Source: Candidatus Eiseniibacteriota bacterium
GTDB lineage: Bacteria > Eisenbacteria > RBG-16-71-46
Direction of reading: 5' to 3'
Length of the DNA: 64,000 nucleotides
Assembly: GCA_031364845.1 (NCBI GenBank)
Contig: JANLWX010000007.1
Span: 87,395 to 151,394, forward strand
The position numbers and the translations under genes were made by a program. Below are positions 9,393 to 52,617 of this stretch, in pieces; position 1 is the first letter of the stretch; each line of letters starts with the position of its first letter. The notes beneath the pieces are model-generated. The model saw only the letters and a program-made list of their open reading frames with translations, made no database searches and had not been told where the DNA came from.

Positions 9393-9469
<77 letters not shown>

Positions 9470-18111: not shown

Positions 18112-18137
18112 TGCGGTACCTCCGAGGGGTTCGCCAC

Positions 18138-19481
18138 TCACCGGCGGGCGATTCCGTACTTGCGCATCTTGCGGTGCAGATTCGTGCGATCGATGCCGAG
18201 GCCGGTCGCGGCTTGCGTGACATTCCCGTTCGCGCTTTCGAGCGCTTTGCGAATCGCCTCCGCCTCGCGTCGTTCGATCTCGCCACGCAGACCGACTCCA
18301 TCGCCGTGTTCCGCGCTGCGCTCGAGCCACGAGGTGAGATCCTCGGCGCGCACTTCAGTTCCTTCCACCAGGATCGCGGCGCGTTCCATGAGATTTCTCA
18401 ACTCACGTACGTTCCCCGGCCAGTGGTATTCCTCGAGCAACGTCTGCGCATCCGGCGTCAGGCGTTTCGGCGCATGTCCTTCCGTCGTGCAGAACTGGTT
18501 CAGAAAGTGTTCCGCGATCGGCGCGATGTCCGCTGGACGTTCGCGCAGCGGTGGCACGTGAAGGGGAAGCACGTTGAGCCGGTAGAACAGATCCTGCCGG
18601 AAGCTGCCGTCTTCGACCGCCGTGGCGAGGTCCTTGTTGGTCGCGGCGACGATGCGGACATCGAAGGTCTGCGTGCGGGTCGCGCCGACCTTCTCGACTT
18701 CGCCGGTTTCGATCACGCGCAGCAGTTTGGCCTGCGCGTCGAGTGCCAGGTCGCCGATCTCGTCGAGGAACAGCGTGCCGTGGTCCGCGAGTTCGAGGCG
18801 TCCCTTCTTGCTCTGAAGCGCGCCGGTGAACGCTCCGCGCTCGTAGCCGAACAGTTCGCTCTCGACCAGATCCTTGGGGATCGCGGCACAGTTGATCTTG
18901 ACGAACGGTCCCGACGCGCGCCGGGAGAGCACGTGGATCGCCTGCGCGACGAGTTCCTTGCCCGATCCGTTCTCGCCCGTGATCAGCACGCGTCCCTGCG
19001 AAGGAGCGACCCGTCGCACGCTCTCGATGAGTGCCGCGATCGCGGAACTCGATCCGAGAATCCCGAGGTCGTCGCCGGGTTTGGAATTCGCGGCGCGCCG
19101 CAGGCCGGTGATCTGCGCGGCCTGCATCACGACATCCAGGAGACGCTCGCGATCCGGTGGCTTCTCGATGAAATCGAACGCGCCGCGCTGGCCGGCGCGC
19201 ATCGCGTTGGCGATGGTCGCCTCGCCCGAGACCACGATCACGCCGACGTCGGGCGCGTTCTCTCGGATGCGTTCGAGCGCGTCGAGACCATGCATGCCGG
19301 GCATCGCGAGATCGAGCAGCACCACGTCGAAGCGGCGCTCCTCGAGCGTCGCGATCGCGCGTTCGCCGGTCTCCGCCTCGGCGACCGTGTGCCCCGCGTG
19401 TTCCAGCACCGCGCGCAGCGCGTCGCGGATGGCGGGATCATCGTCGACTACCAGCACGTCCAGCCGCCTGCTCATCGTCAT
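18138..19481 (-). CDS. sigma54-dependent response regulator (NtrX-like)
   Basis: REC domain, [29 protein letters not shown], Fis-type HTH. Confidence 0.93.
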
Positions 19482-19512
19482 CGTCCCTCGTTTCCTTTCA
19501 GAATTCCGCGCA

Positions 19513-21018: not shown

Positions 21019-21043
21019 GCCCCGGCTGCGAAAGATTCCGAAC

Positions 21044-22111
21044 TCATGCTGCCGGGCTCAGGCCGCCGAGCTGTCCACACGCCGCCCAGATCTCGCCGCC
21101 CAGCGTGTTGCGCACGGTGACCGCGGGCGCCTTGGGATACAGCCACTCCGCGAACTGCCGGATTGAGTCCGGCGTCGGCCGCTTCCATTCGAGGCCCGGC
21201 ACCGGATTGTAGGGGATGATGTTGATCTTGCTCGGCAGCTCGCGCGCGAACGCGCTGAGGCGATCGGCATCGGCGAGCGAGTCGTTGACGCCTCCGAGCA
21301 GTGTGTATTCGAGGGTCACGCGCCTGCCGACTTTGTGGCCATAAGCGGCCGCCGCATCGAGCAGCGTGCGGATCGGCCAGCGCTTGTTCACCGGCACCAG
21401 TTGATCGCGAAGCGTGTCGGTGGTCGCGTGCAGTGAGATCGCGAGTCCCAGCGCCAAACCTTCCGTACCGAGCCGCTCGATCTGCGGCACCAGGCCGCTG
21501 GTCGAGACCGTGATGCGACGCGCCCCGATGTTGAGGCCGCGCGGCTCATGGAGGATGCGGATCGCGCTCATCACCGCATCGTAGTTGGCGAACGGCTCGC
21601 CCATGCCCATGAACACGAGGTTGAAGCGGTTGTCCTTCCAGCCGTGGTAGTCACCCATCGCCACGACTTGCGAGACGATCTCTGAGGGCTTGAGATTGCG
21701 CAGCAACCCCATCAACCCGGTCGCGCAGAACGAGCACTTGAGTGCGCATCCGACCTGGCTCGAGAGGCAGAATGTCAGGCGGCGGTCCGTGCGCATCGAG
21801 ACGCACTCGACCCGTGCGCCGTCCGCGAGCGTGAGCACGAACTTCTGAGTGAGGCCGTCCTTCGTCGAGTGGACCGAGATGTCCCCGGCGAGGCGCGTGT
21901 CGACGATTTCGTGCAGCCGTTCACGCAGGCTCGCCGACAGATTCGTCATCCGTTCCGGGGTGCGCTCGTGTTTCTGGTAGACCCACGCATAGATCTGATC
22001 CGCGCGATATTCGGCTTCTCCGGCCTCGGTCAGAACCCGGGCAAGATCGTCCCGGCTCATTCCATGGAAATTGGGAGGATGGAGTGCCGGCGAAGGCGTG
22101 CTCGGGAGCAT
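21044..22111 (-). CDS. rlmN: dual-specificity 23S rRNA/tRNA m2A methyltransferase RlmN
   Basis: SSQVGCALKCSFCATG radical SAM motif, VFMGMGEP, AACGQL. Confidence 0.95.
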   Translation of the reverse strand: MLPSTPSPALHPPNFHGMSRDDLARVLTEAGEAEYRADQIYAWVYQKHERTPERMTNLSASLRERLHEIVDTRLAGDISVHSTKDGLTQKFVLTLADGARVECVSMRTDRRLTFCLSSQVGCALKCSFCATGLMGLLRNLKPSEIVSQVVAMGDYHGWKDNRFNLVFMGMGEPFANYDAVMSAIRILHEPRGLNIGARRITVSTSGLVPQIERLGTEGLALGLAISLHATTDTLRDQLVPVNKRWPIRTLLDAAAAYGHKVGRRVTLEYTLLGGVNDSLADADRLSAFARELPSKINIIPYNPVPGLEWKRPTPDSIRQFAEWLYPKAPAVTVRNTLGGEIWAACGQLGGLSPAA

Positions 22112-22231: not shown

Positions 22232-22711
22232 ATGAATCCAGAATGGTTCAAATCTCAGCGCGTGCTGCAGTGTCTCGGGGACGGATCCCGGTTTCGGGTC
22301 ATGGCCGAACTCGTGCGCGGCGAACGATGCGTCACCGAGCTGGCGATGCTCGTCGGTCTCTCGCAGTCCTGCACCACCCGGCACCTTCAGGTGCTCGAGC
22401 GTGCGGGACTCGTTTCCAGCCGCCGATCGGGCAAGCGGGTGGTCTTCTGTGTTCGCGAGGACCCGCGCGTGGTGGCTCTGCTGGCGTGGGCGCTTCCGCT
22501 GGACGCGGGCCGCGATGACGCTCCCCTGTTCGACGTCCCGGCAATCCCGAGTGGGAACTCCCTGGATGCCGACCGCAATGGAGCGCAACGCATTGCGCCG
22601 GAACGCCTGAACCCGGCCCATGTCGCGAAGGAGCCCGCTGAGGATCCCGAACTGCAGCCCGTCGGGGGTTCGCGAGGAAGGGCCCGCGAGCTTGAGGACT
22701 TCCTCCTGTGA
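22232..22711 (+). CDS. ArsR/SmtB family transcription factor with disordered C-terminal tail
   Basis: LGDGSRFRVM..ERCVTELA..LSQSCTTRHLQVLERAGLV..RSGK; start uncertain. Confidence 0.8.
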   Translation: MNPEWFKSQRVLQCLGDGSRFRVMAELVRGERCVTELAMLVGLSQSCTTRHLQVLERAGLVSSRRSGKRVVFCVREDPRVVALLAWALPLDAGRDDAPLFDVPAIPSGNSLDADRNGAQRIAPERLNPAHVAKEPAEDPELQPVGGSRGRARELEDFLL

Positions 22712-23739
22712 AACACATGCGCGTCGGTGCAATTGATATCGGCTCGAACTCGATCCGGCTGCTCGTCGCCGATCTCCAGGACGGCGAGGACCGCGTGCTG
22801 ACGACCGTCTCCCGAGCGGGCGAGTCGTGCCGGCTGGGCCGCGACCTCGGGCGCACCGGCATGATCGAGAAGGCGCTGGCGGAGCGGGCTGCGGAGCTGA
22901 CCGCCGATTTCGCCAAACGCGCGCGATCGCTGGGTGCCACGCACACGCTGGCCGCGGCCACGGCTGCCCTGCGGAGCGCCAACAACGGACCCGAGACCGC
23001 TGCCTTGATTTCGGAGCGTTCCGGCGTGGCGGTCCGCATCCTCTCGGGCGACGAAGAGGCTCGCATGGTTTATGGAGCTGTGGTGCTGGGCCTGGGAGCC
23101 GCTGCCCGCCGCAGCCCGTGCATCGTGTTCGACATCGGCGGCGGCAGCACCGAGGTCGTGAGCGGGCTCGGCTCGGTTCCCGGACGCTGGACCAGCCTCA
23201 GTTTCGGCGCGGTGAGCCTCACCGAGCGATTCCTGCTCGGCAATCCTCCCACCGGGGATGAAATGGAAGCGCTGTGCCGTCACGTCGAGGCTGAAGTCAT
23301 GCACCACTGTGCATCCATGCCACCAGTAACCCCGGTTCTCGCAGGCGTAGGAGGCACCGTCACGGTCCTCGCCATGACCGACCGGGTGCTCTCGTCCTAC
23401 GAACCCACGTTGCTCGAAGGCTGGCGAATCCCCCGGGAACGCCTGATCGCGCTGGTCGATCGGCTGTCCCGCAGCACCGAGGACGAGCGCCGTCGGTGGC
23501 CGGCAATGGGTGAGGGCCGGGCCGACATCGTGATCGCCGGCGCGCTCGTGGTCCGGACTCTGATGGAGCGATTTCCGTCGACCGCGCTGGTCTGCTCCAC
23601 GCAGGGCCTCCGGTATGGACTCGCCCGTCTGGCCGCGGAAGAGTCGGTCGCCCTCGGGGCTGCGACCTCGGCTCCGATCGAATCTGCATCCGAGGCGAAC
23701 TTCCCCGTTGACCCGCCTTCGGGTACGGGCGGATACTGA
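22708..23739 (+). CDS. Ppx/GppA family phosphatase (short form)
   Basis: AIDIGSNSIRL, ATAALRSA, ILSGDEEAR, DIGGGSTE, GRADIVIAG, GLRYG. Confidence 0.92.
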   Translation: MKHMRVGAIDIGSNSIRLLVADLQDGEDRVLTTVSRAGESCRLGRDLGRTGMIEKALAERAAELTADFAKRARSLGATHTLAAATAALRSANNGPETAALISERSGVAVRILSGDEEARMVYGAVVLGLGAAARRSPCIVFDIGGGSTEVVSGLGSVPGRWTSLSFGAVSLTERFLLGNPPTGDEMEALCRHVEAEVMHHCASMPPVTPVLAGVGGTVTVLAMTDRVLSSYEPTLLEGWRIPRERLIALVDRLSRSTEDERRRWPAMGEGRADIVIAGALVVRTLMERFPSTALVCSTQGLRYGLARLAAEESVALGAATSAPIESASEANFPVDPPSGTGGY

Positions 23740-23875: not shown

Positions 23876-24175
23876 ATGTTCAAAGTTCGCAACAGGCTCC
23901 TGATCGCCGTGATTCTGTTCGCGATCGCTTTCTGCGCCTGTCTGAACGCGGAAGCCGGAGCGCGCACGCTATTGCGCCCCGGATCGAACTCCTCGTACGG
24001 ACAACTGAAGCCAGGCGCGATGGCGAACGCAGGCGAGCCCGATGTGGGAGACAACGGGAAGAACGGTCCGCCGAGCACCGGCAACGGTTCCGGCGCAGCC
24101 ATCATTCCCACTCCGACGGGTTATCGCTGGATCATCGCGGCATGGGCAGCACGGTATCTCGGAGTGGGCTGGTAG
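23876..24175 (+). CDS. small exported protein (99 aa) of unknown function
   Basis: AGAGGGGAG RBS, Sec-type signal (KVRNR, hydrophobic core, AEA), G/N/P-rich middle with AGEPDVG, aromatic amphipathic C-terminus. Confidence 0.7.
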   Translation: MFKVRNRLLIAVILFAIAFCACLNAEAGARTLLRPGSNSSYGQLKPGAMANAGEPDVGDNGKNGPPSTGNGSGAAIIPTPTGYRWIIAAWAARYLGVGW

Positions 24176-24269
24176 TCGTCAGTACCCACTCGTCACCAGC
24201 AATGTGATCGTGCCCTGGAAAGGACAGCCAGGGTGCTCCGATGCGGTCGTGATCACCGAGGGTTGAAAA

Positions 24270-27200
24270 GTGCAGCGAGCGATCCCCCCCGATCTGGCTC
24301 AGGCCCGCCGCTCCGAAAGGAGCGGGGCGCCGCAGCATGAAGCGATCGGCGATCTTCATCTCGCGGCCGACAATTTCGTCGGTGCCGCCGAGGAATATGT
24401 CGCGGCTCTTCGCGAAGTCGGCGCGTCGGAGCCCGCGGAGCGGTGCCGCCTGCTCGAGCGGCTTGCCGAAGCCAATCGCCGCCGCGGAGACTTCGATGGC
24501 GCGATGACGGCGCTGATCGAAGCACGCGCGACCGCGCGACTGCTGATGGATTCGCGGTGGAACGCGCGGATTGCCGCCCGCTTCTCGCATGTGCTCGCCG
24601 ACCGCGGGCTCCATCGCCGCAGCCGCCGGTACGCGCACTACTGCTATCGCGTGCTGCGCGACACCGACGAACACCGCATCGTCGGACAGGTCAGTGTGAC
24701 GCTCGGTCTGTGCAGTGCGCGACTCGGTCAGAGCCAGGAGGCGATCGACTGGCTTCAGAGCGCGGCTGCCACGTTCCGCCGCATCGACGATGTCGAAGGC
24801 CTGGTGACCGCACTCAACAATCTCGGTCTCGTCTACAAGAACCTGCGCGAATGGCGTGAAGCGACCCGCTTCATCGAACAGGCGCTGCGCCTCGACGAGC
24901 GCGCCGGCCTCTACGCGCGGATGCGGGGCCACAATCAGAATCTCGGGTTGATCCGCTATCGTCTCGGCCAGTGGGATCTCGCTGAAGAAAACTTCCGCCA
25001 GTCGCTCAAGATCTCGCGCGACATCGGACATGCGCAGGGCGAGTCGGTTGCTTTGCTGGCGCTCGGCATGCTCTGCCGCCGACGCCGCCAGTTCGAGCGC
25101 GCCGATGAGCACTTCCAGCGCGCGCTCACGCTCTCGACGCGCGCCGGAGCGCGCCGCGAACAGATCCTGTCGCGCGAGTTCCTGGGAGAACTGGCACTCG
25201 ACCGCGGCGATGCGATCTCCGCCGAGCGCCACATCGCGCCGGCGCTCGAGGAGGCGATCGCGCTCGCGCCGCAGGGTGATCTCGTCGCGGAACTGGAGAC
25301 GCGCCTCGGCCTCACCTTCACCGCGCTCGGTCGCATCGACGAGGCGCAGTCGCATCTGCTGCGCGGCATGATGGTCGCGGAGCATATCGGTGATCGCGTG
25401 GAGCATGCGGTCGCCGAGCGTGGGCTCGCGCGCCTCGATGCGATCCGCGGGAATCCCGCCGCGCTCGAAGCCAAGATCCGCTCGGCGGCTCAGGTGTTCG
25501 AAGGACTCGGCGAGACCTATGAACTCGCCGTGACCCTGTCGATGTGGGGTGAGGCACTGCTCGACCTGCCGAAGAGCACCCGGTTGCGGGTGCCGCTCGA
25601 GGCAGTCGGTGATGCCGCCAAGCGTTCCGCCGCGCTGTTCCGCGAGCTCGGCGTGATCGCACTCGCGGCCGAGGCGCTCATCACGCTCGCGCGGCTCGAA
25701 AGCGAACGCGATCACTATGATCAGGCGCTGTCGCTGCTCGAGAAGGCGGAGCAATGGCTCGCCGATGCCGGATCCGCCGAGACCGAGGAGCGCGCGAAGG
25801 CGCTGCGCCGCGAACTCGAGCAGCAGTACGTCGCGGTTTCGCTTTCGACCTGCAACGAATTCCGGGCACTCGAGGAAGCCAACCGTCTGTTCCGCGAGAC
25901 CAGCGACATGGACGGCCTGCTCGCGGGCACCGTGCGCCTCGCGGTCGAGAGCGCGGGCGGCGATCGCGGATTTGTGGCGTTCAGCCACGGCGGTGGACGG
26001 CTCGAAGTCGTCGCGCAGTACGGGCTCGGCCGCGATCGCGCGCGCCGCATCCTGCGCGTGATCGAAGGTGTCGGCGGCAGCCGCATCGCCGAGAACGGAC
26101 CGGTGTTCTCGAGCCGGGTCACTGCCGATCCTCGCTTCGGCGCGGCGCTGACCGACGCGCTCGAGAACGTCGGATCGCTCGTGTGCGTGCCGCTCAATTT
26201 CCCGTCGCAGTCGGTCGGCATGGTCTACGTCGATCGCCTCAACGACAATCTGCTCGGCCCGTTCCGCCAGCGCGAATTGAATCTGCTCGCGGTACTCGCG
26301 AACAGCGCCGCGGTCGCGATCGTCGAAGCCCAGCGCTCGCTGCTGCTCGCCGAGAACAAGCAACTGCGCGACAAGCTCAAGCCGATGCCCGGCGTCGAGC
26401 GCGTCGTGACCGATTCACGCGAGATGACCTCGATCCTCAAGCTGATCGCGAAGGTCGGCGACAGCTCGGCGACCATTCTGTTCATGGGCGAGACCGGCAC
26501 CGGCAAGGGCCTGCTGGCTCAGGTCGTGCACGAGGTCTCCAACCGGCGCGACAAGGCGTTCGTGATGGTGAACTGCGCCGCACTGCCCGAGCAGCTGCTC
26601 GAGAGCGAGCTGTTCGGCTACGTCCAGGGTGCGTTCACGGGTGCCGTCCGCGACAAGGTCGGCCTGTTCGAGGAAGCGAGCGGCGGGACGATCTTCCTCG
26701 ACGAGATCGAGAAGGTTCCGGAGACGGTGCAGGCCAAGCTGCTCCACGTGCTCGACAGCGGCGAGATCCGCCCGGTCGGAGCGACGCGCAGCCGCAAGGT
26801 GGATGCGCGCGTGATCTGCGCCACCGGCTGCGATCTGCGAGAGCGGATCAAGGACGGCCGGTTCCTCGAGGATCTCTACTACCGCCTGAACGACATCTCG
26901 ATTCGCGTGCCCTCGTTGCGCGAGCGCCGCGAAGACGTGCCCGTGCTGGCGCAGCATTTCCTCGGCTACTACTCGAAGCAGATGGAGAAGCGGATCACGG
27001 GTTTCGCGCCGGGCGTGATGAAGGCGTTCCTGGACTACGAATGGCGCGGCAACGTGCGCGAACTCGAAAAGACCGTGAAGCGTCTCGTGGTGCTCGCGGA
27101 CGACGGCGACACGCTCGACACCACGCTTCTGCCTTCCGACATGCTGGAGACGATGCCTGCGGCCGGCGAGCGGGCACCGGGTATGAGCCTGCGCTCCAAC

Positions 27201-27353
27201 GTTTCGCAGCTCGAGAAGAAGATGATCGCCCAGGCACTCGAGCGCCATCATTGGAACAAGGCGCGTACCGCGCGGGAGCTGGGCCTCAGCTACCCGACGC
27301 TGCTCACCAAGATTCGGAGCTTCAAGATCGAGCGTCGCCCGGCCCACTCGTGA
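24270..27353 (+). CDS. TPR-GAF-AAA+ sigma54 enhancer-binding protein with HTH
   Basis: About 500 aa of TPR repeats (ALNNLGLVY, NLGLIRYRLGQW), GAF (SLVCVPL..VGMVYVD), GETGTGKG, GAFTGA, FLDEI, WRGNVREL, NKARTARELG. Confidence 0.93.
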   Translation: MQRAIPPDLAQARRSERSGAPQHEAIGDLHLAADNFVGAAEEYVAALREVGASEPAERCRLLERLAEANRRRGDFDGAMTALIEARATARLLMDSRWNARIAARFSHVLADRGLHRRSRRYAHYCYRVLRDTDEHRIVGQVSVTLGLCSARLGQSQEAIDWLQSAAATFRRIDDVEGLVTALNNLGLVYKNLREWREATRFIEQALRLDERAGLYARMRGHNQNLGLIRYRLGQWDLAEENFRQSLKISRDIGHAQGESVALLALGMLCRRRRQFERADEHFQRALTLSTRAGARREQILSREFLGELALDRGDAISAERHIAPALEEAIALAPQGDLVAELETRLGLTFTALGRIDEAQSHLLRGMMVAEHIGDRVEHAVAERGLARLDAIRGNPAALEAKIRSAAQVFEGLGETYELAVTLSMWGEALLDLPKSTRLRVPLEAVGDAAKRSAALFRELGVIALAAEALITLARLESERDHYDQALSLLEKAEQWLADAGSAETEERAKALRRELEQQYVAVSLSTCNEFRALEEANRLFRETSDMDGLLAGTVRLAVESAGGDRGFVAFSHGGGRLEVVAQYGLGRDRARRILRVIEGVGGSRIAENGPVFSSRVTADPRFGAALTDALENVGSLVCVPLNFPSQSVGMVYVDRLNDNLLGPFRQRELNLLAVLANSAAVAIVEAQRSLLLAENKQLRDKLKPMPGVERVVTDSREMTSILKLIAKVGDSSATILFMGETGTGKGLLAQVVHEVSNRRDKAFVMVNCAALPEQLLESELFGYVQGAFTGAVRDKVGLFEEASGGTIFLDEIEKVPETVQAKLLHVLDSGEIRPVGATRSRKVDARVICATGCDLRERIKDGRFLEDLYYRLNDISIRVPSLRERREDVPVLAQHFLGYYSKQMEKRITGFAPGVMKAFLDYEWRGNVRELEKTVKRLVVLADDGDTLDTTLLPSDMLETMPAAGERAPGMSLRSNVSQLEKKMIAQALERHHWNKARTARELGLSYPTLLTKIRSFKIERRPAHS

Positions 27354-27690
27354 GCGAGTGACGTCTTCGAGTTCTGCCTTAGAGGGGTCCATTCGTTCCT
27401 CGACCCCCGGCGATTGAAGACCCTTAAAGACGGCTGACCTCGCGAACCCGAGACCGCCCGTCTCTCCATCCTCGAAACACACAAGTTCTTTCCCTCACCA
27501 CCATAAAAACAATTGCTACCCAAGTCCCTTATTCGGCGCGGACTTAGATTCTGCCCTCGAAATCACGCAGAAGTCTTGTGTCACCCGAAACACCCGGGGC
27601 AAACTCAGGACTAAGAATGGCGAAGCGAATCGAACTCGATTCGATTGTGCGACATGGTGTTACGGGATTGTCTTGTCGCCGTCAGATCGC

Positions 27691-27706
27691 TGGCATGCAG
27701 GGTGCT
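27691..27706 (+). promoter_or_regulatory. sigma54 (-24/-12) promoter
   Basis: TGGCATG-CAGG-GTGCT, GG-N10-GC; predicts +1 near 27717. Confidence 0.7.
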
Positions 27707-27716
27707 TTAGTAATCA

Positions 27717-28142
27717 GGCGGAGGGGGGGGACCTCCAAACCAAGTTCAGCGAGCGATTGCTGGACGAACAAGACATCTGGGCTAGCCGGTTCCGTAGGAG
27801 TCGGTCAAGGGTTACGAGCCCCAGTCTCACAAGGACGAATGCACCGCCCTCTACGACCGGCTAGCTTGGAGTAACACTCCGAACATCGAACACCACCCAC
27901 GACTTTTCATATTCCCGGGGTGCTCCTGATACGACAGGCGGCGGGTCCGCTGACGACGAGGGCTCCTGATCCCGCTGCAAGTTGAGCGCCCCGGGGTATT
28001 CAAGGACACCGGTTTCTAGCAACTTCGGCCAGCATTGGGGGATGCCTCGGTCGACGCGGCTTAGCTCTTCGAAGCCGGTGTCCTCGTTTCGAGAAAGTGT
28101 GGCGCGGCTCACACACACGTGAGACCGCGCCGCACTGTTTTT
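27717..28142 (+). ncRNA. candidate novel ~425-nt structured ncRNA
   Basis: Bounded by a sigma54 promoter and an intrinsic terminator; three 82-90 nt domains closed by 10-14 bp stems, GNRA-capped hairpin, G-U pairs favour + strand; no convincing ORF. Confidence 0.7.
28096..28142 (+). terminator. intrinsic terminator
   Basis: AGTGTGGCGCGG-CTCAC/GTGAG-A-CCGCGCCGCACT stem followed by GTTTTT. Confidence 0.8.
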
Positions 28143-28274
28143 GCCGTCGTCGGTGTGGCGAAGACTGTGGATCCGCGATTCTCCGCCCGTCCCCGCCCCG
28201 TAACTTGTTGGCGCATAAGGATGGCCCCGTCCACTCGGAGCCCATCTACAATCTGCGCCTCACAAGGAAAGCGA

Positions 28275-28289
28275 TGGCACGGGCATTGC
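28275..28289 (+). promoter_or_regulatory. sigma54 (-24/-12) promoter, consensus match
   Basis: TGGCACG-GGCA-TTGC; partial IHF-like site (reverse CAA-CAAG-TTA) near 28201-28210. Confidence 0.8.
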
Positions 28290-28353
28290 CGTTGCTGTTC
28301 CGTTCGCGACTCGTAACCCCAAGGATCGCCTCGCTTACGGAAAGGACAGGCCC

Positions 28354-29178
28354 ATGAGATCCGCCCTGGTCATGACGTCGATGCTCGCCCTGGCAGGCTT
28401 GGTCGCCGGGTGCAACGACTCCACCGCACCCCGAGATCTCATCGCACCCGCGGCTCCGCGCGGCCTGGTGACGGTGACCGGGGACCACGTCGTGTACGTG
28501 AGCTGGCTCGCCAACACCGAAGGCGATGTGGCCGGCTACCGGATCTACGAGGCGCCGTGCCCTGACGGCGACGGGTGCCCCTACGATCCGGTCGGCGTCA
28601 CCTCGAGCACCCGATTCACGATCGAGGGGCTCACCAACGGCGAGACGCGCTTCTTCGCCGTCGCCGCATTCGATCATGCGGGCAACGAGAGCGCCCTATC
28701 CAAGGATCTCGCCTTCGACACGCCGCGACCTGAAGGATTCGACCAGTTCCTCAGTGACGCGACCGACCAGCCCGCGACGAGCGGCTGGGACTTCTCGGCC
28801 CGGGCGGTGCGCGCGTTCGATGATCCGGCGGTCGACGTTTACTATGTACGCTCGAGCGGGGTGGATCGGATCGTCGCGCCGTTCGTGGACACCGACATCC
28901 AGGACGCGGGTTACGCGACCACACTCGATGCCATCGACTTTGCGCCGACCGGCGGCTGGTCGCCGACCGGCGCCACGGAACTCGTGGTCGGGCACTGTTA
29001 CATCGTGCGGACGTTCGACGATCACTACGCCAAGCTGAGGGTCACGGGCCTCGCGGCGGGCCGCGCGCAGTTCGATTGGGCCTATCAAATCGATCCGGGC
29101 AACCGCGAGCTCAAGGCGCGGCCCGCCAATCGCGAAGGGGGCCGGGTCCGCCGGCACACCGTGGCGCTGGTGCCATGA
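28354..29178 (+). CDS. lipoprotein with fibronectin type III-like domain
   Basis: Lipobox LVAGC; PAAPRGL..VSW..DVAGYRIY..GLTNG..FAVAAFDHAGNES. Confidence 0.75.
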   Translation: MRSALVMTSMLALAGLVAGCNDSTAPRDLIAPAAPRGLVTVTGDHVVYVSWLANTEGDVAGYRIYEAPCPDGDGCPYDPVGVTSSTRFTIEGLTNGETRFFAVAAFDHAGNESALSKDLAFDTPRPEGFDQFLSDATDQPATSGWDFSARAVRAFDDPAVDVYYVRSSGVDRIVAPFVDTDIQDAGYATTLDAIDFAPTGGWSPTGATELVVGHCYIVRTFDDHYAKLRVTGLAAGRAQFDWAYQIDPGNRELKARPANREGGRVRRHTVALVP

Positions 29179-29192
29179 GGGGGTAAGAACAC

Positions 29193-29702
29193 ATGGGGTG
29201 GCAGCGGGCGATAGGTTTGTTCGTGGGGCTCGCAGTGCTGTTGTCAGGCTGCGTGCAAGCCTATCGGTCGGTGCGGCCGGAACCCCGGTTGTACGCGGCA
29301 GCGCGTCCGGCACCCGGTTACTACTGCTATGATTGTCACGGCTATCGGTTTCTGGACCCGTACTACGACTGGTGCCCCCCGAACGGCTATCGGTTCCAGT
29401 GGTCCCAGTCCCCGCAGCTCATGCGGGTGTACCGGGAACGCTATGTGGCTTTGAAGCAACGCGATCGCAACCTGGGAAAGTTCCGCTACTCGGACCGCTA
29501 CCGCTCCACGCGGCGCTATCGCGAGTCGCGGCCATACGAGGACGACGCGGAAGGGAAGCGCAGGCCCGGACAGGGCATCAAAGATTCTCGACGGGAGCAG
29601 GACGCCCCACGTCGGGGTAAGAGCGAACGAGCTCCGCGCGATTCGGACGATTCCCGGCCGAAGAAGTCGCGAGGCCAGAGGCCGCAAGGGACCGAATCAT
29701 GA
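29193..29702 (+). CDS. lipoprotein with CxxCH motif and charged disordered tail
   Basis: Lipobox LLSGC; YYCYDCHG..DPYYDWC; ATGA overlap with next gene. Confidence 0.65.
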   Translation: MGWQRAIGLFVGLAVLLSGCVQAYRSVRPEPRLYAAARPAPGYYCYDCHGYRFLDPYYDWCPPNGYRFQWSQSPQLMRVYRERYVALKQRDRNLGKFRYSDRYRSTRRYRESRPYEDDAEGKRRPGQGIKDSRREQDAPRRGKSERAPRDSDDSRPKKSRGQRPQGTES

Positions 29703-31096
29703 CTCGACGCCACGCCGTTCTCACCGCATTCGCGTTGCTTCTGCTCCCGGTGCTTCCGGGTGTCGTGGCCGCGCGCGGATTTTCGGTCGATGTCTGGACG
29801 AACCGCGGCAACGACGGAGTCTATAAGCCCGGCGAAGCCATCGACATCAAAGTGCGCCCGTCCGAAGACGCCTACGTCCTTCTCTACGAGATCGATGCCG
29901 AGGGCTACGTTCACAAGCTCTACCCATACGACCGCTCGAGCGGCATGCTCGAAGGGCGCCGCACCTACCGCCTCGGCGAGGATCAGGACGAGGCGGAACT
30001 CGTCGCACAGGGCCCGGTCGGACAGGGCTTCATCGTGGCGATCGCCTCGCTCGACCCATTCGAGCCGCTGCCCTGGTATCTGCGTTCGGTCGATCGGCAG
30101 GCCGAGGAACTCGGCTACGACGGCGCACCCGAAGACGAACGCGAAGGCATCACGGCCGAAGGACGCATCGTCGGAGATCCGTTCGTCGTCATGGAGCGCA
30201 TCCGCCGGCGCGTCGTCGCGGATCCCAACGACTCCGAGGGCTTCACGACCTCCTACACGAGCTACTACCTCCATCACGAAGTCCGCTATCCGCGCTACCT
30301 GTGCAACGATTGCCACCGTCCCGACCGCTACACGTTCTGGGACGGATACGATCCTTACTACGCCACGTGCAGCGTGTTCGACTTCCGCGTGAATTATCAC
30401 TGGAACTGGGGACCGTCGTACTGGTTCGGCAGCGTCCCCTACTTCGTCTACGTCTATCGCGACGACTGTCCGCCGCAGTTCCGCAATCCCGGCCGTCGTT
30501 CGTGGTCGTCATGGGATGGCTGGGGCCGCTGGCAGAATCTGTGGGGCGGAGGTCTCCGGCGCTTCAAGACGCCGCCGCCGACGGGCTACGTGCCTCCGAC
30601 CAAGTACGACGGCGAGTTCCGCCGTCCGGTGTCGCGCGCCCTTCCCCCGGGCTTCATCGCCTCGACACCCAAGGAGCGACTCGGACGGCGCATCGGAGTG
30701 CCCACGGGCCGCCAAACCGGCGATTTCGGCGATCGCGATTCGAAGGATCGTGGAGATCTCGGTGGCCGGCTGCGGCGCGACCAGCCGCTGAAGCCTCGTG
30801 GCGATGGCGAAGACGTCCGCGATCGCGGGTCGGTCCGCCGTGGCGCCGAACGTCCGGTGCCTGCACGCGAAGCGCCGCGTCCGGATCTGCCGGGCGGGCG
30901 TCGCGACCGCGACGAATCACCGGGACCGGATCGGATCGAGCGGCGTCAGTCGCCGCCGCCGCCGCCCGCGCCGAAGAGCGAACCCGAAGTTCAGCGCGCG
31001 CCGCGCAACGACCCGCCGCCCCGGACACCGGAGCCTCAGCGTTCTCCGCGCCCGCAGACGGAGCGCGAAGACAACGGATTCCGCGGACGCCGTTGA
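29699..31096 (+). CDS. DUF4384 domain protein with CxxCH motif and R/P-rich tail
   Basis: Signal peptide; VDVWTNRG..YKPGE..DAYVLLYEIDAEG..LYP; YLCNDCH..DPYYATC. Confidence 0.75.
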   Translation: MTRRHAVLTAFALLLLPVLPGVVAARGFSVDVWTNRGNDGVYKPGEAIDIKVRPSEDAYVLLYEIDAEGYVHKLYPYDRSSGMLEGRRTYRLGEDQDEAELVAQGPVGQGFIVAIASLDPFEPLPWYLRSVDRQAEELGYDGAPEDEREGITAEGRIVGDPFVVMERIRRRVVADPNDSEGFTTSYTSYYLHHEVRYPRYLCNDCHRPDRYTFWDGYDPYYATCSVFDFRVNYHWNWGPSYWFGSVPYFVYVYRDDCPPQFRNPGRRSWSSWDGWGRWQNLWGGGLRRFKTPPPTGYVPPTKYDGEFRRPVSRALPPGFIASTPKERLGRRIGVPTGRQTGDFGDRDSKDRGDLGGRLRRDQPLKPRGDGEDVRDRGSVRRGAERPVPAREAPRPDLPGGRRDRDESPGPDRIERRQSPPPPPAPKSEPEVQRAPRNDPPPRTPEPQRSPRPQTEREDNGFRGRR

Positions 31097-31238
31097 TTCG
31101 GGAACCTATCGCACTGGGTGGCGTCCCGCCCTCGGGATCGGCGAGAATGCGCCCGTTCGAATGGACGACGACCTTCGCATTCGCGGCGTGTGAGACACCA
31201 GTCTCACGCGCCGCGAATGCCACCTATCGGAGCTCCCC

Positions 31239-32189
31239 TTGATGCGACGCGTTCACCGCGGCACCCGTTTCCTGCGCCGTCTTGTCTTTGCCTTCGCGCT
31301 CGCGACCGGAGCGGGTCTCGGCACCTGGGCGCCGAATGCAACGGCGGCTCCGTCGGGGTTCGCGTTCCTCGAGATTCCGGCGGGCGCGCGTTCAGCGGCA
31401 CTCGGTGGGGCGCTCGCCACGATGACGTCCGGCGCCGAGGCGATGTTCGGCAACGTCGCCTCGATCGATCCGACCCGTGGAATCCAGGTGAGCGGCGGAC
31501 ACAGCGAGTTGATCCAGTCACTGCGCCACGACTACTTCTCCGTGTCCGGGCACGCCTGGGGCGGCGGGCTCGGTGCCTCGATGCGCGCGCTCTATTCGGA
31601 GCCGATCGACGAGCGCGACGAAGTCGGCAATCTGATCGGTACCTTCGGGGCGCACGATCTCGAATTTGCACTCGGCTATGGCGGACCCCTGATGCCGGAC
31701 GTGCGTTTCGGCGTCTCCGCCCAAATGATCCGCGAGCGCATCGCCAACGAGGCCGTGACGACTTACGGCATCGGCCTCGGTGCCCTGTGGGAGCCCGCGG
31801 GCCCGCTCGACTTCGGCCTCACGGTTCAGAACCTCGGCCCGGCCGCGCACTACAAGATCAACGGCATCGAAGGTGAAGCGGTCGGACTCCCTGCGGCCGT
31901 GCAGGGTGGCGCGTCCTATTCCATCGCGGCGGGTGCGCGCATGTCGGCGCGCGCGGCACTCGAAGGACGCTTCACTCGCGGGCGCGGCGGCATCGGGATT
32001 CTCGGTGCTGAGATCTCCGACGTCTCGGGAGCCGCGTTGCGCTTCGGCGTCCGCGCGAACGACGACGCTTCGACCTTCAGCGCCGGCGCCGGCTACGCGC
32101 TCACCGGGCTACAGTTCGACTACGCGTGGGTTCCGTTCAAGCTCGATCTCGGCGACACGCACCGGATTTCGTTCACCGCGAAGTTCTGA
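31239..32189 (+). CDS. PorV/PorQ-like (UPF0164) outer-membrane barrel protein
   Basis: AFLEIPAGARSAALGGA N-terminus and DYAW..LGDTHRISFTAKF C-terminus. Confidence 0.8.
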   Translation: MMRRVHRGTRFLRRLVFAFALATGAGLGTWAPNATAAPSGFAFLEIPAGARSAALGGALATMTSGAEAMFGNVASIDPTRGIQVSGGHSELIQSLRHDYFSVSGHAWGGGLGASMRALYSEPIDERDEVGNLIGTFGAHDLEFALGYGGPLMPDVRFGVSAQMIRERIANEAVTTYGIGLGALWEPAGPLDFGLTVQNLGPAAHYKINGIEGEAVGLPAAVQGGASYSIAAGARMSARAALEGRFTRGRGGIGILGAEISDVSGAALRFGVRANDDASTFSAGAGYALTGLQFDYAWVPFKLDLGDTHRISFTAKF

Positions 32190-32210: not shown

Positions 32211-32966
32211 TCACTTGCGGCGCGGGTCTTCCCCCGCCATCGGCCAGGTTTCGAGGCGCAACCGGCCGTTTTCGAGCACGGCGTAGGTGAAGCGCTCGAT
32301 CCAGTCGCCGAGCACCATGAAGTCCCGTCCACTTTCGTGGTGCTCGAAGGCGTGATGAAAATGGCCGATCATCACGGCATCGTAGCCTTCCGCGAACCGG
32401 GGCCGGGCGATTTCGCGAACCAGCAGGTCGCCATCGAGTTTGCGCTGATCCCGCGAATGGCGGGATTGCCGCGACACCCACCCCGCGAGCGGAATGCCCA
32501 GATCGGGGTGGATCGCGCGGTAGAGGCCGATGCAGACGGGGTTTCTCAGCACCTTTTTCAAAACCTTGTAGCCGAGGTCGCCGCCGATCAATCCATCCCC
32601 ATGATGGATCCACAGCTTTCGGCCCTGGGCATCGAGCGTGAGCGGACCGTCATGGATGGTCACACCGAGTTCGTCCGCCAGGAACGTGCCGAGCCAGTGA
32701 TCGTGGTTGCCGCCGAGATACGTGATCGGAATGCCGGCCGCGCGAACGCGGCCGAGCGCGCACAGGGTGTGGAAGTGGCGGCGGGGGATCGTGGTGCCGT
32801 ACTCGAACCAGAAGTCGAACAGATCGCCGACGATGGTGAGCGAGCCAGCCCGTCCCGGCAGCGAGGCGAGAAACGAATGCAGATGGGATTCACGGGCGGC
32901 CTCACGGTCTCTCGACTCCGCGCCAAGGTGTGCGTCGGAGATGAAGAACGCGGCGTCCGGGACCAT
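32211..32966 (-). CDS. lpxH: UDP-2,3-diacylglucosamine diphosphatase (LpxH-like)
   Basis: FISDAHLG, GDLFDFWFEY, GNHD, HGDG, GHFH, LGDWI. Confidence 0.85.
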   Translation of the reverse strand: MVPDAAFFISDAHLGAESRDREAARESHLHSFLASLPGRAGSLTIVGDLFDFWFEYGTTIPRRHFHTLCALGRVRAAGIPITYLGGNHDHWLGTFLADELGVTIHDGPLTLDAQGRKLWIHHGDGLIGGDLGYKVLKKVLRNPVCIGLYRAIHPDLGIPLAGWVSRQSRHSRDQRKLDGDLLVREIARPRFAEGYDAVMIGHFHHAFEHHESGRDFMVLGDWIERFTYAVLENGRLRLETWPMAGEDPRRK

Positions 32967-33285: not shown

Positions 33286-34794
33286 ATGAGCAATCATCCG
33301 TTCACGTCGCAGAAGCCTCGTGGATATTTCACGGGGGCGGCCCTGCTGGTCGCCGTCGGACTCGTCATCGGCCTGGGACTGTCGGCGGGTCTCGATTTCC
33401 AGAAGACCTCCACCGCTCAGAAGACGACAATGGTTCCGGCGGCGAGCACGATGGCCGCGGTGCCCGAAAGCCCGTTCGTGTCGGTCGTCGAGCAGGCGCT
33501 TCCCGCCGTCGTGTTCATCGATGTTCGCAAGAACGCCGCGAGCAGCCGGACCGGCGATCCGCAGGCCGATCTGTTCCGCCGCTTCTTCGGCGAAGAGGCC
33601 CCGCGCCGCCAGCAGCAGGCTCCGCCCAGCTCGGGCTCCGGCTTCATCGTCGATACGGACGGCCACATCCTCACCAACAATCACGTGGTGCGTGACGCCA
33701 GCGACATCACGGTGACGCTCAACGACCGCCGTTCGTTCAAGGCGAAGGTCGTCGGCGCCGACCCCGAGACCGACGTCGCGGTCATCAAGATCGAAGGCGA
33801 AAACCTGCCAGTGCTGCGTCTCGGCGACTCGGGCCAGGTGCGCATCGGCGACTGGGCGATCGCGATCGGCAACCCGCTCGGCATGCTGCGCGGCTCCGTC
33901 ACGGTCGGCATCATCAGTGCGCAGGGTCGCTCGGATCTCAACATCTACGGCGGGACGCCGCAGTACCAGGACTTCATCCAGACCGACGCCTCGATCAACT
34001 TCGGCAACTCGGGCGGACCGCTGTGCAATATCCGCGGCGAGGCGATCGGCATCAACACCGCGATCAACCCGAGCGGCCAGGGCATCGGCTTCGCGATTCC
34101 GATCAACCTCGCGAAGCACGTTTCGGATCAACTGATCGCCCACGGCACGGTGAAGCGCGCGATGCTGGGTGTGTTCCTCGCGGAACTGACACCCGAAATC
34201 GCAGAAGGCTTCGGCCTTGGACGCACCGACCAGGGCGTGATCATCCGCGACGTTCAGGATGGTTCGCCCGCCGCGCGCGCGGGGCTCAAGCGCAACGATG
34301 TGGTGGTCGAATTCGACGGGCAGCCGGTCACCGAGTTGCAGAAGTTCCGCATTCGCGTTGCCGATACCCCGGTGGGCAGGAGTGTCCCGGTCACCGTGCT
34401 GCGCGACGGCAAGCGTGAGAAGTTGAACGTGACGCTCACGAGCAAGGAAGATGACCCGGTCGCCTCCGGCGATCCCGCAGCGCGGACCCCGGAGACCGTC
34501 TCGGAGCTGGTGGGCGGACTCAAGGTGCGCACGTTGAGCGAGGAAGAGCGCGCCGCGTCCAAGCTGACCGGCGGTGTGGCGGTCGCCGATGTCGCCGAGG
34601 GCAGTGCGGCCAGCGACGCCGGAATCCAGGCCGGTGACATCATCCAGGAAGTCGGCGGAAAGGACGTGAAGTCCGCCGCGGACTTCGCCAGACTGATCCG
34701 TGAATCGAAGAGCCAGAGGAAGCATGTCGTTCTGCTGGTCAGCAGCCCGAACGAAGCGCCGCGATTCGTGGCGCTCCGACTCGAAACACGTTGA
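33286..34794 (+). CDS. degP: Do/DegP/HtrA family serine protease with two PDZ domains
   Basis: GSGFI, TNNHVV, DVAVIK, IQTDASINFGNSGGPL; GGAGG RBS. Confidence 0.92.
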   Translation: MSNHPFTSQKPRGYFTGAALLVAVGLVIGLGLSAGLDFQKTSTAQKTTMVPAASTMAAVPESPFVSVVEQALPAVVFIDVRKNAASSRTGDPQADLFRRFFGEEAPRRQQQAPPSSGSGFIVDTDGHILTNNHVVRDASDITVTLNDRRSFKAKVVGADPETDVAVIKIEGENLPVLRLGDSGQVRIGDWAIAIGNPLGMLRGSVTVGIISAQGRSDLNIYGGTPQYQDFIQTDASINFGNSGGPLCNIRGEAIGINTAINPSGQGIGFAIPINLAKHVSDQLIAHGTVKRAMLGVFLAELTPEIAEGFGLGRTDQGVIIRDVQDGSPAARAGLKRNDVVVEFDGQPVTELQKFRIRVADTPVGRSVPVTVLRDGKREKLNVTLTSKEDDPVASGDPAARTPETVSELVGGLKVRTLSEEERAASKLTGGVAVADVAEGSAASDAGIQAGDIIQEVGGKDVKSAADFARLIRESKSQRKHVVLLVSSPNEAPRFVALRLETR

Positions 34795-34862
34795 ACCCGG
34801 ATTTGGGAGGCGGCCGCAGGCTGCCTCCCACTCCGAGTCACAGCCGATGCCCGCGGCCAACC

Positions 34863-34938
34863 GGCAGGCTGATGAAGAACCCGAGTGCAGCGAGGAGCGA
34901 CCGAGCAACGCAGCAATCGGGTTTTTCATCAGCCTGCC
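34863..34938. repeat. REP/MITE-like palindromic element, short copy
   Basis: 22-nt terminal inverted repeats GGCAGGCTGATGAAGAACCCGA/TCGGGTTTTTCATCAGCCTGCC; core shared with 36259-36381. Confidence 0.8.
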
Positions 34939-35003
34939 AAGGCGCGGGCACCGTGCTTAGGGTCTCCGGGTCAGTCCCGGCCGAAAAAAGAGGACGATCG
35001 ATC

Positions 35004-36221
35004 GTGCGAAGGACTCGCCGTCTGATGTCGTTTGTGACAACGCTGCTGATCGCGACCTCCGCGTCGTTCGCCGCCGTGCGTGCGGACGGTCCGGTCGCCA
35101 CACCGGGCGTGACCACGCTCACCGGCCTGCGTTCGTGGTCGGCTCCTTCGAACACTCGTGTGGTTCTCGCCTTTTCGGCGATGGTGACGCCGGTGGCGCC
35201 TGACTCCGGCAAGAGCCGCGAGTTGGTGGTCGCGTTCCCGGGCGAGACGCTGCCGCGCGCGGCCGACGTTCCCTCGATGCTCGCCGTTCGCGACGGGCTC
35301 ATCGACTCGGTCGTCGTGCAGGATTCGCCGACCGGCGCGCGCGTGCTCATCACCTTCCGCGACACGGTCAAGTTCCGCGTGTTCCCGTTGCCGGGCGAGG
35401 CGGACAAGCAGTACCGCCTGGTCGTGGACGTGGCGCGCCCGGGTGGCGCGGCGGCCGAAGAGAAACGACTCGCAGGCATCGCGAACGCGAAGAAGCGCGA
35501 CCGCGTCCGCATCGTCACGGTCGATGCCGGACACGGAGGCGACGACACCGGAGCGCGCGGCCCGCGCAACGTGCTCGAGAAGCGCGTCACGCTCGGCGTC
35601 GCCAAGGCGCTGGTCGAGGAGCTCAACAAGATTCCCGGCATTCGCGCGGTCAACACGCGCGACGGCGATTTCTTCATCCCGCTGCGCGAGCGCTATCGAA
35701 TCGCCGAACGCATGAACGCCGATCTGTTCGTGAGCATCCACGCGAACTCCTCACGGCGTCGCGGGAGCGGCAAGGGCACGGAGGTCTACTTTCTGTCGGT
35801 GCGCGGCGCGAGCGATCAGGCCACGCAGGATCTGGCTGACATCGAAAACGCGGCCGATCAGCTGGGCGGCGTGCCTTCGCAGGCCGAGGATGATCTCGTG
35901 AACATCCTCTACGACGTGAAGCGCAGCTCAGCCCAGCAGCAGAGTCAGTTGCTGGCGGAAACGCTGCTCGACCACCTGGGCGAAGACCGCCGCCTCGAGC
36001 AGCGCGGCGTGAAGCAGGCGGGATTCGCCGTGCTCAAGTCGGTCGAATTCCCGTCCGTACTGGTTGAGACCGCGTTCATCAACAACCCGGTCGAAGCCAA
36101 ACTGCTCGGAAATCCGGAGTTCCAGAAGCAGCTCGGCCGCCAGCTCGCCGCCGGCGTGAAGATGTACTTCCAACGGGCGGGAGTCACGCTTGGCTCGGAG
36201 ACCTCGCAGGCGAGGCCATAG
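35004..36221 (+). CDS. N-acetylmuramoyl-L-alanine amidase (AMIN + Amidase_3)
   Basis: VDAGHGGDDTGA, LEK, DLFVSIHAN, PSVLVETAFINN; start uncertain. Confidence 0.9.
   Translation: MRRTRRLMSFVTTLLIATSASFAAVRADGPVATPGVTTLTGLRSWSAPSNTRVVLAFSAMVTPVAPDSGKSRELVVAFPGETLPRAADVPSMLAVRDGLIDSVVVQDSPTGARVLITFRDTVKFRVFPLPGEADKQYRLVVDVARPGGAAAEEKRLAGIANAKKRDRVRIVTVDAGHGGDDTGARGPRNVLEKRVTLGVAKALVEELNKIPGIRAVNTRDGDFFIPLRERYRIAERMNADLFVSIHANSSRRRGSGKGTEVYFLSVRGASDQATQDLADIENAADQLGGVPSQAEDDLVNILYDVKRSSAQQQSQLLAETLLDHLGEDRRLEQRGVKQAGFAVLKSVEFPSVLVETAFINNPVEAKLLGNPEFQKQLGRQLAAGVKMYFQRAGVTLGSETSQARP

Positions 36222-51174: not shown

Positions 51175-52617
<1,443 letters not shown>

Follow-up and report, generated by a model that had tools for sequence, protein, structure and literature searches.

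A probable sigma-54 regulatory module encoding a structured RNA in Candidatus Eisenbacteria

Organization of the locus

We analyzed a 64,000-nucleotide (nt) stretch of DNA, here called the window (contig JANLWX010000007.1, positions 87,395 to 151,394, assembly GCA_031364845.1; G+C content ~67%), from an uncultured sediment bacterium of Candidatus Eisenbacteria, a phylum with no cultured member to our knowledge. By open reading frame (ORF) and translation reading of the window, every gene at 23876-32189 is on the forward strand. These genes code for a small secreted protein, a sigma-54 activator with TPR and GAF domains and, after a spacer of ~1,000 nt devoid of conserved ORFs, four envelope proteins beginning with an FN3 lipoprotein (fn3; Table 1). 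We conclude with high confidence that this 1-kb gap holds a genuine gene, present in one copy, for a structured RNA of ~345 to 375 nt that lies outside the catalogued families, and the whole is best explained, with reasonable confidence, as a conserved sigma-54 regulatory module of Candidatus Eisenbacteria. A preliminary description of the window had proposed a co-oriented set of small exported protein, activator, RNA and envelope operon, and the ORFs, profile matches and RNA analysis confirm it.

The arrangement was followed through 101 sources including this genome, with 20 loci from related genomes and 80 from a public genome collection, together with a phylum sample of 151 Eisenbacteria genomes and a deeper-family sample of 20 loci from eight further families. 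Activator, spacer and fn3 are present in all 20 family-to-class loci (in one, L031, the contig stops inside the activator gene), with spacers of 761 to 1,427 nt in 19 of 19 complete loci, and the same linkage is seen in every Eisenbacteria-type collection locus whose contig extends far enough upstream. The preliminary description had held that unlinked components in relatives would count against it; their linkage is kept.

Table 1. Features of the locus, in window coordinates
Feature	Position	Strand	Basis or remark
Small secreted protein, 99 amino acids (aa), signal peptide	23876-24175	+	ORF, alignment
Leader hairpin, then ACCGGGTG-like sequence and Shine-Dalgarno (SD) sequence GAGGG (24258-24262)	24210-24236	+	Alignment of 44 leaders
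TPR-GAF-AAA+(sigma-54)-HTH_8 enhancer-binding protein, 1,027 aa	24270-27353	+	Pfam
C7 run, activator codons 5-7 (Ile-Pro-Pro), candidate pairing site	24284-24290	+	Leader alignment
P1, sigma-54-type promoter TGGCATGCAGGGTGC (TGGCAT-N5-GTGC)	27691-27705	+	Conservation in register
Structured noncoding RNA, ~374 nt here	27718-28092	+	Alignments, RNAalifold, pair counts, covariance model
RNA 5' hairpin GGAGG-G8A-CCTCC	27720-27736	+	Invariant among relatives
RNA module 1, closed by GGGCTAGCCGG/CCGGCTAGCTT	27777-27869	+	Covariation
RNA module 2, apical loop UUGGGGGA, G-run 28037-28041	28004-28083	+	
Conserved block GGTGTGGCGC..CGCACACC..GCGCACACC	28097-28142	+	Consensus of relatives
P2, perfect sigma-54 consensus TGGCACGGGCATTGC	28275-28289	+	79 nt ahead of fn3 start
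FN3 plus beta-sandwich lipoprotein (fn3)	28354-29178	+	Weak fn3 match, fold model
Small CxxCH lipoprotein with YYCYDCHGY, basic disordered tail	29193-29702	+	ORF
DUF4384 protein, Pro/Arg-rich tail	29699-31096	+	Pfam, 54 bits
PorV/PorQ-family outer-membrane beta-barrel	31239-32189	+	NF033709, 107.1 bits (cutoff 90)

A structured RNA in the activator-fn3 spacer

The RNA extends for 374 nt from its predicted start to the end of module 2, with a median of 344 nt in 53 relatives. After P1, the elements follow one order across loci: the 5' hairpin, a variable but covarying hairpin, module 1 (~140 nt), a linker (~115 nt) and module 2 (~78 nt), the last closed by GGACACCGG/CCGGTGTCC and leading into a U-rich stretch. 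The region 27716-28150 folds at -203.5 kcal/mol (z = -6.2), a value equaled by none of 100 shuffles. Compensatory double changes occur in 10 of the 34 predicted pairs of module 1 (56 sequences), where 97.4% of alignment cells can pair as against 30 to 55% with slid partners, and in 16 of the 24 pairs of module 2 (53 sequences), where the corresponding values are 91.8% and 31 to 40%. The covariation score was reached by none of 500 shuffles in each module; that shuffle control is inflated by relatedness, and the slid-partner control is the fairer of the two. No Rfam family matches the RNA at its gathering score, and a search at E ≤ 10 gave only three chance-level microRNA or long-noncoding-RNA matches (11.6 to 20 bits, against gathering scores of 60 to 90). 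Five ORFs in the spacer (27578-27874+, 27861-28118-, 28000-28245-, 28097-28357+ and 27290-27523-) were rejected as genes, as each has only partial matches in no more than ~10 of 100 other loci.

A covariance model of module 1 (R1) has one match in the genome, at 115 bits, and matches 70 of the 151 genomes of the phylum sample, always in one copy. These include all members of this order's three families (59/59, 3/3 and 6/6 in f1, f2 and f3) and one of 32 genomes in a fourth, and the model is too narrow for the range of the RNA: a hairpin of the form GGAGG-G6-7-A-CCTCC lies within ~0.7 kb of the activator stop in 17 of the 20 deeper-family loci, 14 of the 20 have both this hairpin and the P1 motif, ~27 nt apart, and five have the module 2 loop (ATGGGGGATGTCCAGGC or close to it). 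Since P1 and the hairpin are each present in 17 of these 20 loci and the N-terminal half of the activator has counterparts in 146 of the 151 genomes, the pairing of activator and RNA is close to class-wide.

The element is also represented in RNA libraries. A few exact words of this stretch recur in six metatranscriptome runs, and four of these, from four studies, were aligned at 80% likeness, yielding 16 contigs (127 to 346 nt) that map to 27733-28029 only; among them are a 171-nt contig with one mismatch (depth 18) and a 283-nt contig with seven. No contig maps to the 3' end of the activator gene, to the last 330 nt before the predicted start from P1, or to the 470 nt past 28030, which include the start of fn3. 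Upstream, the loose contig ends extend from 27774 by 36 nt at most, or from 27813 by 90 nt, never passing the predicted start, and the longest loose end, 217 nt beyond 27872, reaches ~28089, the end of module 2. The absence of fn3 from the contigs says nothing about the activity of P2.

These contigs lend moderate support to an abundant, discrete RNA, and with the covariation they bear out the structured RNA of the preliminary description, but several considerations count on the other side. The contigs reveal neither strand, true ends nor levels, such libraries can carry DNA, the runs were picked by means of this very stretch, and the flanks of relatives may be too diverged to map; the strand, ends and targets given here for the RNA are predictions from sequence. 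Moreover, there is no variation in the 5' hairpin, and a DNA palindrome at +3 to +19 would account for it equally well. One could therefore suppose that the conserved blocks are enhancer or operator sites acting at the DNA level, with no stable RNA made, and some other blocks are likewise invariant, palindromes being typical of activator sites. The compensatory double changes in both modules and the confinement of the library contigs to the element argue strongly against this explanation, to which we attach very little probability.

Two conserved sigma-54-type promoters

P1 and P2 each have GG and GC 10 nt apart in a TGGCAC-N5-TTGC-like element upstream of a transcription unit, as in sigma-54 promoters, and rpoN is present in a single copy in the genome. 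They had been put forward in the preliminary description as the two best -24/-12 matches in the window. This holds in that P2 is the sole perfect TGGCAC-N5-TTGC in 64 kb and both are conserved sigma-54-type sites, but P1 has two mismatches to the consensus and is not among the best; the first T of its TTGC is replaced by G, C or A across loci. Matches to TGGCAC-N5-TTGC with at most one mismatch number six in 64 kb, where 3.5 are expected, a count that is also reached in 15 of 100 shuffles. The motif count is thus no more than chance, and the reality of P1 and P2 rests on their conservation. In an alignment of spacers from 13 genera, the GG-N10-GC of both promoters is in register in 13 of 13, and P1 was located in 76 locus rows (63 distinct), always 27 to 28 nt ahead of the invariant CGGAGGGGGGG(G)ACCTCC hairpin; nearly all of these rows also have P2, 52 to 237 nt ahead of the matched fn3 start. 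Most Eisenbacteria-type sources lacking a row either have contigs that end too soon upstream or, like L022, depart from the pattern. A P1-like motif was also found by pattern in 17 of the 20 deeper-family loci. The predicted P1 start is near 27717-27718, and it is very likely that the RNA is transcribed from this promoter. A generic scan for promoters and terminators found nothing above shuffles. The five further one-mismatch matches in the window are at 372, 16023, 51221, 53459(-) and 59488; that at 51221 stands at the start of another activator gene, and that at 53459(-) is a good TGGCAT-N5-TTGC.

The interval from the RNA to P2 contains a block with the consensus GGTGTGGCGC-N4-CGCACACCTGAGTC-N5-GCGCACACC, after which comes a GC hairpin with a T-run; the copy of the block in this genome itself folds into a long hairpin followed by TGTTTTT. 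It may be a backup terminator, an enhancer site for P2, or both. A strict terminator is present at the block in 18 of 53 loci, and the motif GCACACC/CACACCT occurs in 32 to 36 of 53 P2-upstream regions versus 0 to 2 of 53 P1-upstream regions; the block is ~120 to 165 nt ahead of P2, the usual position of an enhancer site.

The scarcity of strict terminators raises the question of whether the RNA is instead a cis-acting leader, either a riboswitch or an attenuator, of the fn3 operon, with P1 reading through and P2 internal. A strict terminator lies anywhere between module 2 and P2 in only 19 of 53 loci, the RNA and fn3 share their orientation, and GGTGTGGCG / CGCACACC / CGCACACC could form alternative pairings. 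Nonetheless, P2 is conserved and nearer to consensus than P1, module 2 ends as a helix followed by a U-run at the point where the longest RNA contig stops, and the f7 loci keep the RNA beside the activator, with fn3 3.4 to 3.6 kb off or not found in the fetched stretch. We regard a leader as improbable and favor a separate RNA.

The TPR-GAF activator and control of P1 and P2

The activator is composed of TPR repeats, a GAF domain (residues 546-684), Sigma54_activat (713-878; PF00158, 215.9 bits, E = 3.8e-64), AAA_lid_14 and HTH_8 (46 bits). The motifs GAFTGA and GETGTGKG are readable in its translation, and it combines an AAA+ domain having Walker A and GAFTGA with a C-terminal Fis-type helix-turn-helix (HTH), as enhancer-binding proteins do. 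It has no receiver domain and no transmembrane segment, and as it falls under all NCBIfam equivalog cutoffs it belongs to no named subfamily. The counterparts in 146 of the 151 sampled genomes were found with its N-terminal 530 aa; most of the listed counterpart ORFs are ~1,030 to 1,100 aa long, and some are split or cut.

We propose that this cytoplasmic protein senses a ligand or partner through its TPR or GAF domains and probably opens P1, in the manner of CbrB at crcZ and LuxO at qrr1. That the same protein also opens P2 and so drives the fn3-(CxxCH)-DUF4384-porV/Q operon is a closer call, which we favor only slightly. The dependence of either promoter on RpoN and on a given activator is predicted from the DNA itself.

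Assigning both promoters to a single activator meets several difficulties. Apart from GC-rich noise, no 7-mer is common to the sequences that precede P1 and P2, and hence no shared enhancer site backs one activator for both. The genome encodes ~21 sigma-54 activators, and a response regulator (18138-19481) with its neighboring HAMP kinase (19513-21018) keeps its synteny with the locus in all 10 family and order loci and in both class-level genomes examined. With a second activator equally syntenic, synteny cannot tell which of the ~21 fires P1 and P2. The locus had been described as self-contained, which is not borne out, the whole neighborhood, second activator and kinase included, being collinear out to class level. 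Finally, a sigma-54-type TGGCA(C/T)-N5-NTGC is found 39 to 133 nt upstream of fn3 in 11 of 19 loci from other phyla of the Fibrobacteres-Chlorobi-Bacteroidetes (FCB) group; in these 19 loci no activator lies within 8 kb and the RNA hairpin was not found before fn3. Five of these genomes searched whole have only GAF-AAA+-HTH relatives and no TPR form. As fn3 has such sites there without a TPR activator, P2 may answer to an older activator, and P2-type control of fn3 looks older than the TPR-GAF/RNA pair.

A rival explanation places P1, P2 or both under the control of another activator, the likeliest being the NtrC-type response regulator at 18138-19481; its kinase would then supply the true periplasmic sensor, and the TPR-GAF protein would regulate something else or only modulate. 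We nonetheless consider this unlikely. The TPR-GAF gene ends ~340 nt ahead of P1, and the P1 motif and the hairpin each follow its stop in 17 of the 20 deeper-family loci (both in 14), including f7 loci without an adjacent fn3. In addition, the C-run link described below is to the TPR-GAF mRNA, and the start region of the response regulator has no C-run.

Possible roles of the RNA

If the RNA acts in trans, it would do so through its two invariant G-rich hairpin loops. In this order, the loops would probably pair with the C7 run of the activator mRNA and block initiation, giving negative feedback, a suggestion that we advance tentatively and rate at somewhat below even chances. The sequence GTG-CAG-CGA-GCG-ATC-CCC-CCC-GAT at the activator start is nearly invariant in 44 leaders, with at least six C in 43 of them. 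The codon CCC stands for Pro6 in 41 of 42 cases and for Pro7 in 36 of 42, whereas CCG is preferred at nine of the 10 remaining columns of invariant Pro, and only six of 81 invariant four-fold columns are as constant as the C-run codons. C7 runs are scarce in the genome (160 in 9.2 Mb of both strands). The predicted duplex with the start region has an energy of -28.1 kcal/mol for one hairpin (shuffled mean -20.4; p = 0.038) and of -38.8 kcal/mol for the other (shuffled mean -26.9; p = 0.006). The C-run of f2, f6 and f9 is displaced, lying either within the leader or in the interval from the SD sequence to the ATG.

Other observations weigh against feedback. The Pro-Pro pair is invariant as protein too, so that part of the conservation of the C-run is at the coding level, and the duplex of the whole RNA with the start region is not unusual relative to random genome windows (p = 0.11). 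One locus, L022, keeps both G loops without a C-run, and in L090 the C-run is interrupted and the loops are unchanged. Only three of the 20 deeper-family loci have a C-run of at least five near the activator start, one of them at the initiation site, and the hairpin is kept in 17. Retention of the hairpin in families that lack the C-run means that feedback cannot be the ancestral role of the loops, and the RNA would need one or more additional partners of greater age, which could be C-rich mRNAs or a protein, for example CsrA. A longer pairing past the G/C core (GGCCAG with CUGGCU) is seen in this genome only, is not conserved, and was set aside.

The second kind of partner would make protein binding the main function, with one RNA holding one CsrA dimer or another RNA-binding protein. 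Both invariant loops consist of a G-run followed by A and present GGA at their 3' side, and they stay invariant where the activator C-run is absent. The CsrA selection consensus is RUACARGGAUGU, which module 2, reading ACA-YUGGGGGA-UGU, resembles, and CsrA is encoded in the genome (90 bits). However, GGA is barely enriched, at 9.7 versus 7.1 expected per RNA over 53 RNAs, unlike in the CsrB/RsmZ sponges; this genome's RNA has eight GGA against 7.0 expected and only two conserved GGA-bearing loops, rather than the many GGA, mostly in loops, of a CsrA sponge. The two loops are ~300 nt apart, and csrA lies beside a flgM-like gene, suggesting a flagellar, FliW-type circuit. Mainly protein binding thus seems unlikely, and pairing with mRNA remains our preferred, if tentative, reading within this order.

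Some related observations concern the sites with which G-rich loops might pair. TCCCCCC sites are near putative starts in nine of 178 cases in the genome, and C6 runs at C193:9444(-), C225:14994(+), C61:61909(+) and C55:13718(-) lie between an SD-like sequence and the start, or within the opening codons of long ORFs, and are candidates for additional targets. The small ORF and the activator gene are separated by 95 nt, which include the leader hairpin, of a CCGGAA-CGAACC-GCCGG type in relatives, which may be an attenuator or a second RNA contact. The csrA gene (C20:6747-6905) adjoins the gene for the FlgM-like small protein, ~2 kb from another sigma-54 activator.

The small secreted protein

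In 48 of 50 loci, a range that extends to class level, a counterpart of the small protein is encoded 83 to 243 nt ahead of the activator (at most 146 nt in 47), and from its alignment it is a conserved gene. The protein comprises a signal peptide, a P/G/S-rich linker, an invariant G-(E/D)-P-D motif (G53, P55 and D56 do not vary) and a W/R-rich C-terminal amphipathic segment. It has no Pfam or NCBIfam match, and its nearest Atlas clusters are Eiseniibacteriota hypothetical proteins.

The preliminary description took this protein for an exported signal coupled to an extracellular cue, both of which are purely conjectural. In its fullest form, the idea is that the protein is a self-made signal that is exported, perhaps processed at G-E-P-D, and sensed by the TPR domain, in a circuit like those of the RRNPP regulators of Firmicutes, where a TPR-containing cytoplasmic regulator is encoded beside a gene for a small secreted propeptide. 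TPR domains bind peptides, the small gene is consistently paired with the activator gene, and the protein is fast-evolving except for its signal peptide, G(E/D)PD motif and C-terminal helix. Because the activator lacks any membrane segment, re-entry of the peptide into the cell would be needed, and no importer or processing enzyme is linked to the locus; we consider the signal reading quite unlikely. The locus differs from RRNPP systems in its AAA+/sigma-54 output rather than HTH or phosphatase, its diderm host, its 99-aa partner with a motif in mid-protein, and its lack of a linked importer. A more elaborate circuit, in which the processed 99-aa protein reports to the TPR-GAF activator directly or via the FN3, DUF4384 and PorV-like envelope proteins and the RNA sets the threshold by feedback, is similarly unlikely. 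Were it true, it would be a self-contained cell-cell or envelope-state loop running through sigma-54 and a small RNA (sRNA), of a kind not known outside Firmicutes.

The envelope operon

The four envelope genes are closely packed, with gaps of 14 nt, a 4-nt overlap and 142 nt. The fn3 domain match is weak (23 bits; cutoff 25), and a fold model of the lipoprotein (predicted local distance difference test score, 81.9) has FN3 plus a second beta-sandwich; a fold search with it returned generic FN3 tandems, with a DUF4466 lipoprotein best at a template-modeling score of only 0.41. The fn3 gene was found in 39 of 41 related genomes, and it has at least 568 relatives among at least 599 pattern-matched collection stretches, including WOR-3, TA06, Ignavibacteria, Bacteroidota and Cloacimonadota. 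In the 19 loci sampled from these and other phyla, fn3 is present in all and the DUF4384 gene in 11, and fn3-DUF4384 looks like a widespread sigma-54 envelope cassette across FCB-group phyla. In L098 (7998-10373), fn3 is followed by genes for a Trp/Tyr-rich membrane protein and then a DUF4384(-PEGA) protein.

All 55 DUF4384 orthologues have the motif C-x-D-C-H, usually as YPRY-x-C-x-DCHRP. The paralogous motif of the small lipoprotein, Y(Y/F)CYDCHG(Y/D)R, is found in an ORF in 18 of 55 loci, making this gene an optional member of the operon. C-x-D-C-H is the heme c attachment pattern; neither the DUF4384 protein nor the small lipoprotein matches a cytochrome family in Pfam or NCBIfam, and the small lipoprotein has no family match of any kind in these databases. 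A PDB sequence search with the DUF4384 and PorV-like proteins returned nothing, and the Atlas gave hypothetical clusters only. The CxDCH motif and the activator-paired secreted protein are concrete starting points for heterologous experiments.

The barrel exceeds the PorV/PorQ family cutoff, and the same genome encodes a type IX secretion system (SprA, 564 bits; 81 Por_Secre_tail matches, ~35 over cutoff). It is like the type IX PorV/PorQ proteins in passing this cutoff and in sharing its genome with SprA and many proteins bearing C-terminal domains (CTDs). It is unlike them in falling below both equivalog cutoffs (17 versus 250 bits for PorV; 62 versus 220 for PorQ) and in that the co-operonic proteins are not of the type IX system and have no CTD match.

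Relation to known systems

Activator genes adjoined by sigma-54-dependent sRNA genes are known from several bacteria. In Vibrio, qrr1 adjoins luxO, and the Qrr sRNAs are ~100 nt long, Hfq-dependent and multicopy; CrcZ of Pseudomonas is of a size class similar to the RNA described here, at a few hundred nucleotides; and GlrR-GlmY of enterobacteria and Nla19-Pxr of Myxococcus are further cases of a sigma-54-dependent sRNA gene beside that of an activator. A close parallel in layout is CbrB-CrcZ: crcZ is co-oriented with cbrB and lies just downstream of it, and its expression from a -24/-12 promoter of its own requires CbrB and RpoN (PMC5113210). Here too, the RNA gene stands beside an activator gene and has its own -24/-12 promoter. 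The two systems differ in that our RNA has no sequence or structure similarity to CrcZ and no Rfam match even at E ≤ 10, that CbrB is a response regulator whereas our activator has TPR and GAF domains and no receiver, and that CrcZ sequesters Hfq/Crc through A-rich motifs whereas our RNA conserves two G-rich loops. Phosphorylated LuxO and sigma-54 make the Qrr sRNAs, which in turn repress luxO mRNA (PMC3730234); any comparable feedback here would be confined to part of the class, as the C-run is not conserved across it. Unlike the Qrr sRNAs, the RNA is ~350 nt long, single-copy and highly structured. It is also unrelated to GlmY and Pxr, again without an Rfam match, and their activators are response regulators.

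The preliminary description knew of no described system with this composition. This stands for the composition as a whole, although CbrB-CrcZ and LuxO-Qrr already have its core, an activator with an adjacent sigma-54 sRNA. Undescribed so far are the RNA family, the envelope operon, and the TPR-GAF sensor together with the secreted protein paired with it. A full-text literature search found no paper joining Eisenbacteria with sigma-54, none of the literature searched describes a regulatory RNA for the candidate phylum, and no title or opening of an abstract in the DUF4384 literature concerns this operon. The present analysis newly contributes the class-wide reach of the pairing of P1 with the hairpin, bounds on the feedback idea, a rival activator of equal synteny, the sigma-54 sites that precede fn3 in other phyla, and the conservation both of the small secreted protein and of the CxDCH motif. 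The RNA adds to a candidate phylum a large, well-supported structured family with a defined promoter and a testable target, and the design of an activator gene followed by its own sigma-54 sRNA recurs far outside Proteobacteria.

Neighboring genes and other observations

The locus is flanked by a Ppx/GppA gene (22708-23739) and a convergent gene for an LpxH-like phosphoesterase (32211-32966), which scores under the profile cutoffs. Farther upstream, genes for an Omp85-family protein, the NtrC-type response regulator, the HAMP kinase and RlmN occupy 16810-22111 (-) and are collinear with the locus to class level, all four being syntenic in each of 10 family and order loci and in the two class-level genomes examined. 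The region is rich in envelope genes, among them those for Omp85, the LpxH-like protein and an AmiC-type amidase (34791-36221). A tRNA gene at 9396-9469 (-) is the sole Rfam match in the window at the gathering score. Four collection loci (L039, L056, L079 and L043) have Eisenbacteria-type genes on contigs titled Saccharimonadaceae, Limnocylindria, Verrucomicrobiia or Krumholzibacteriia, with the full arrangement present in L039; these are probably misbinned or mislabeled contigs of metagenome-assembled genomes.

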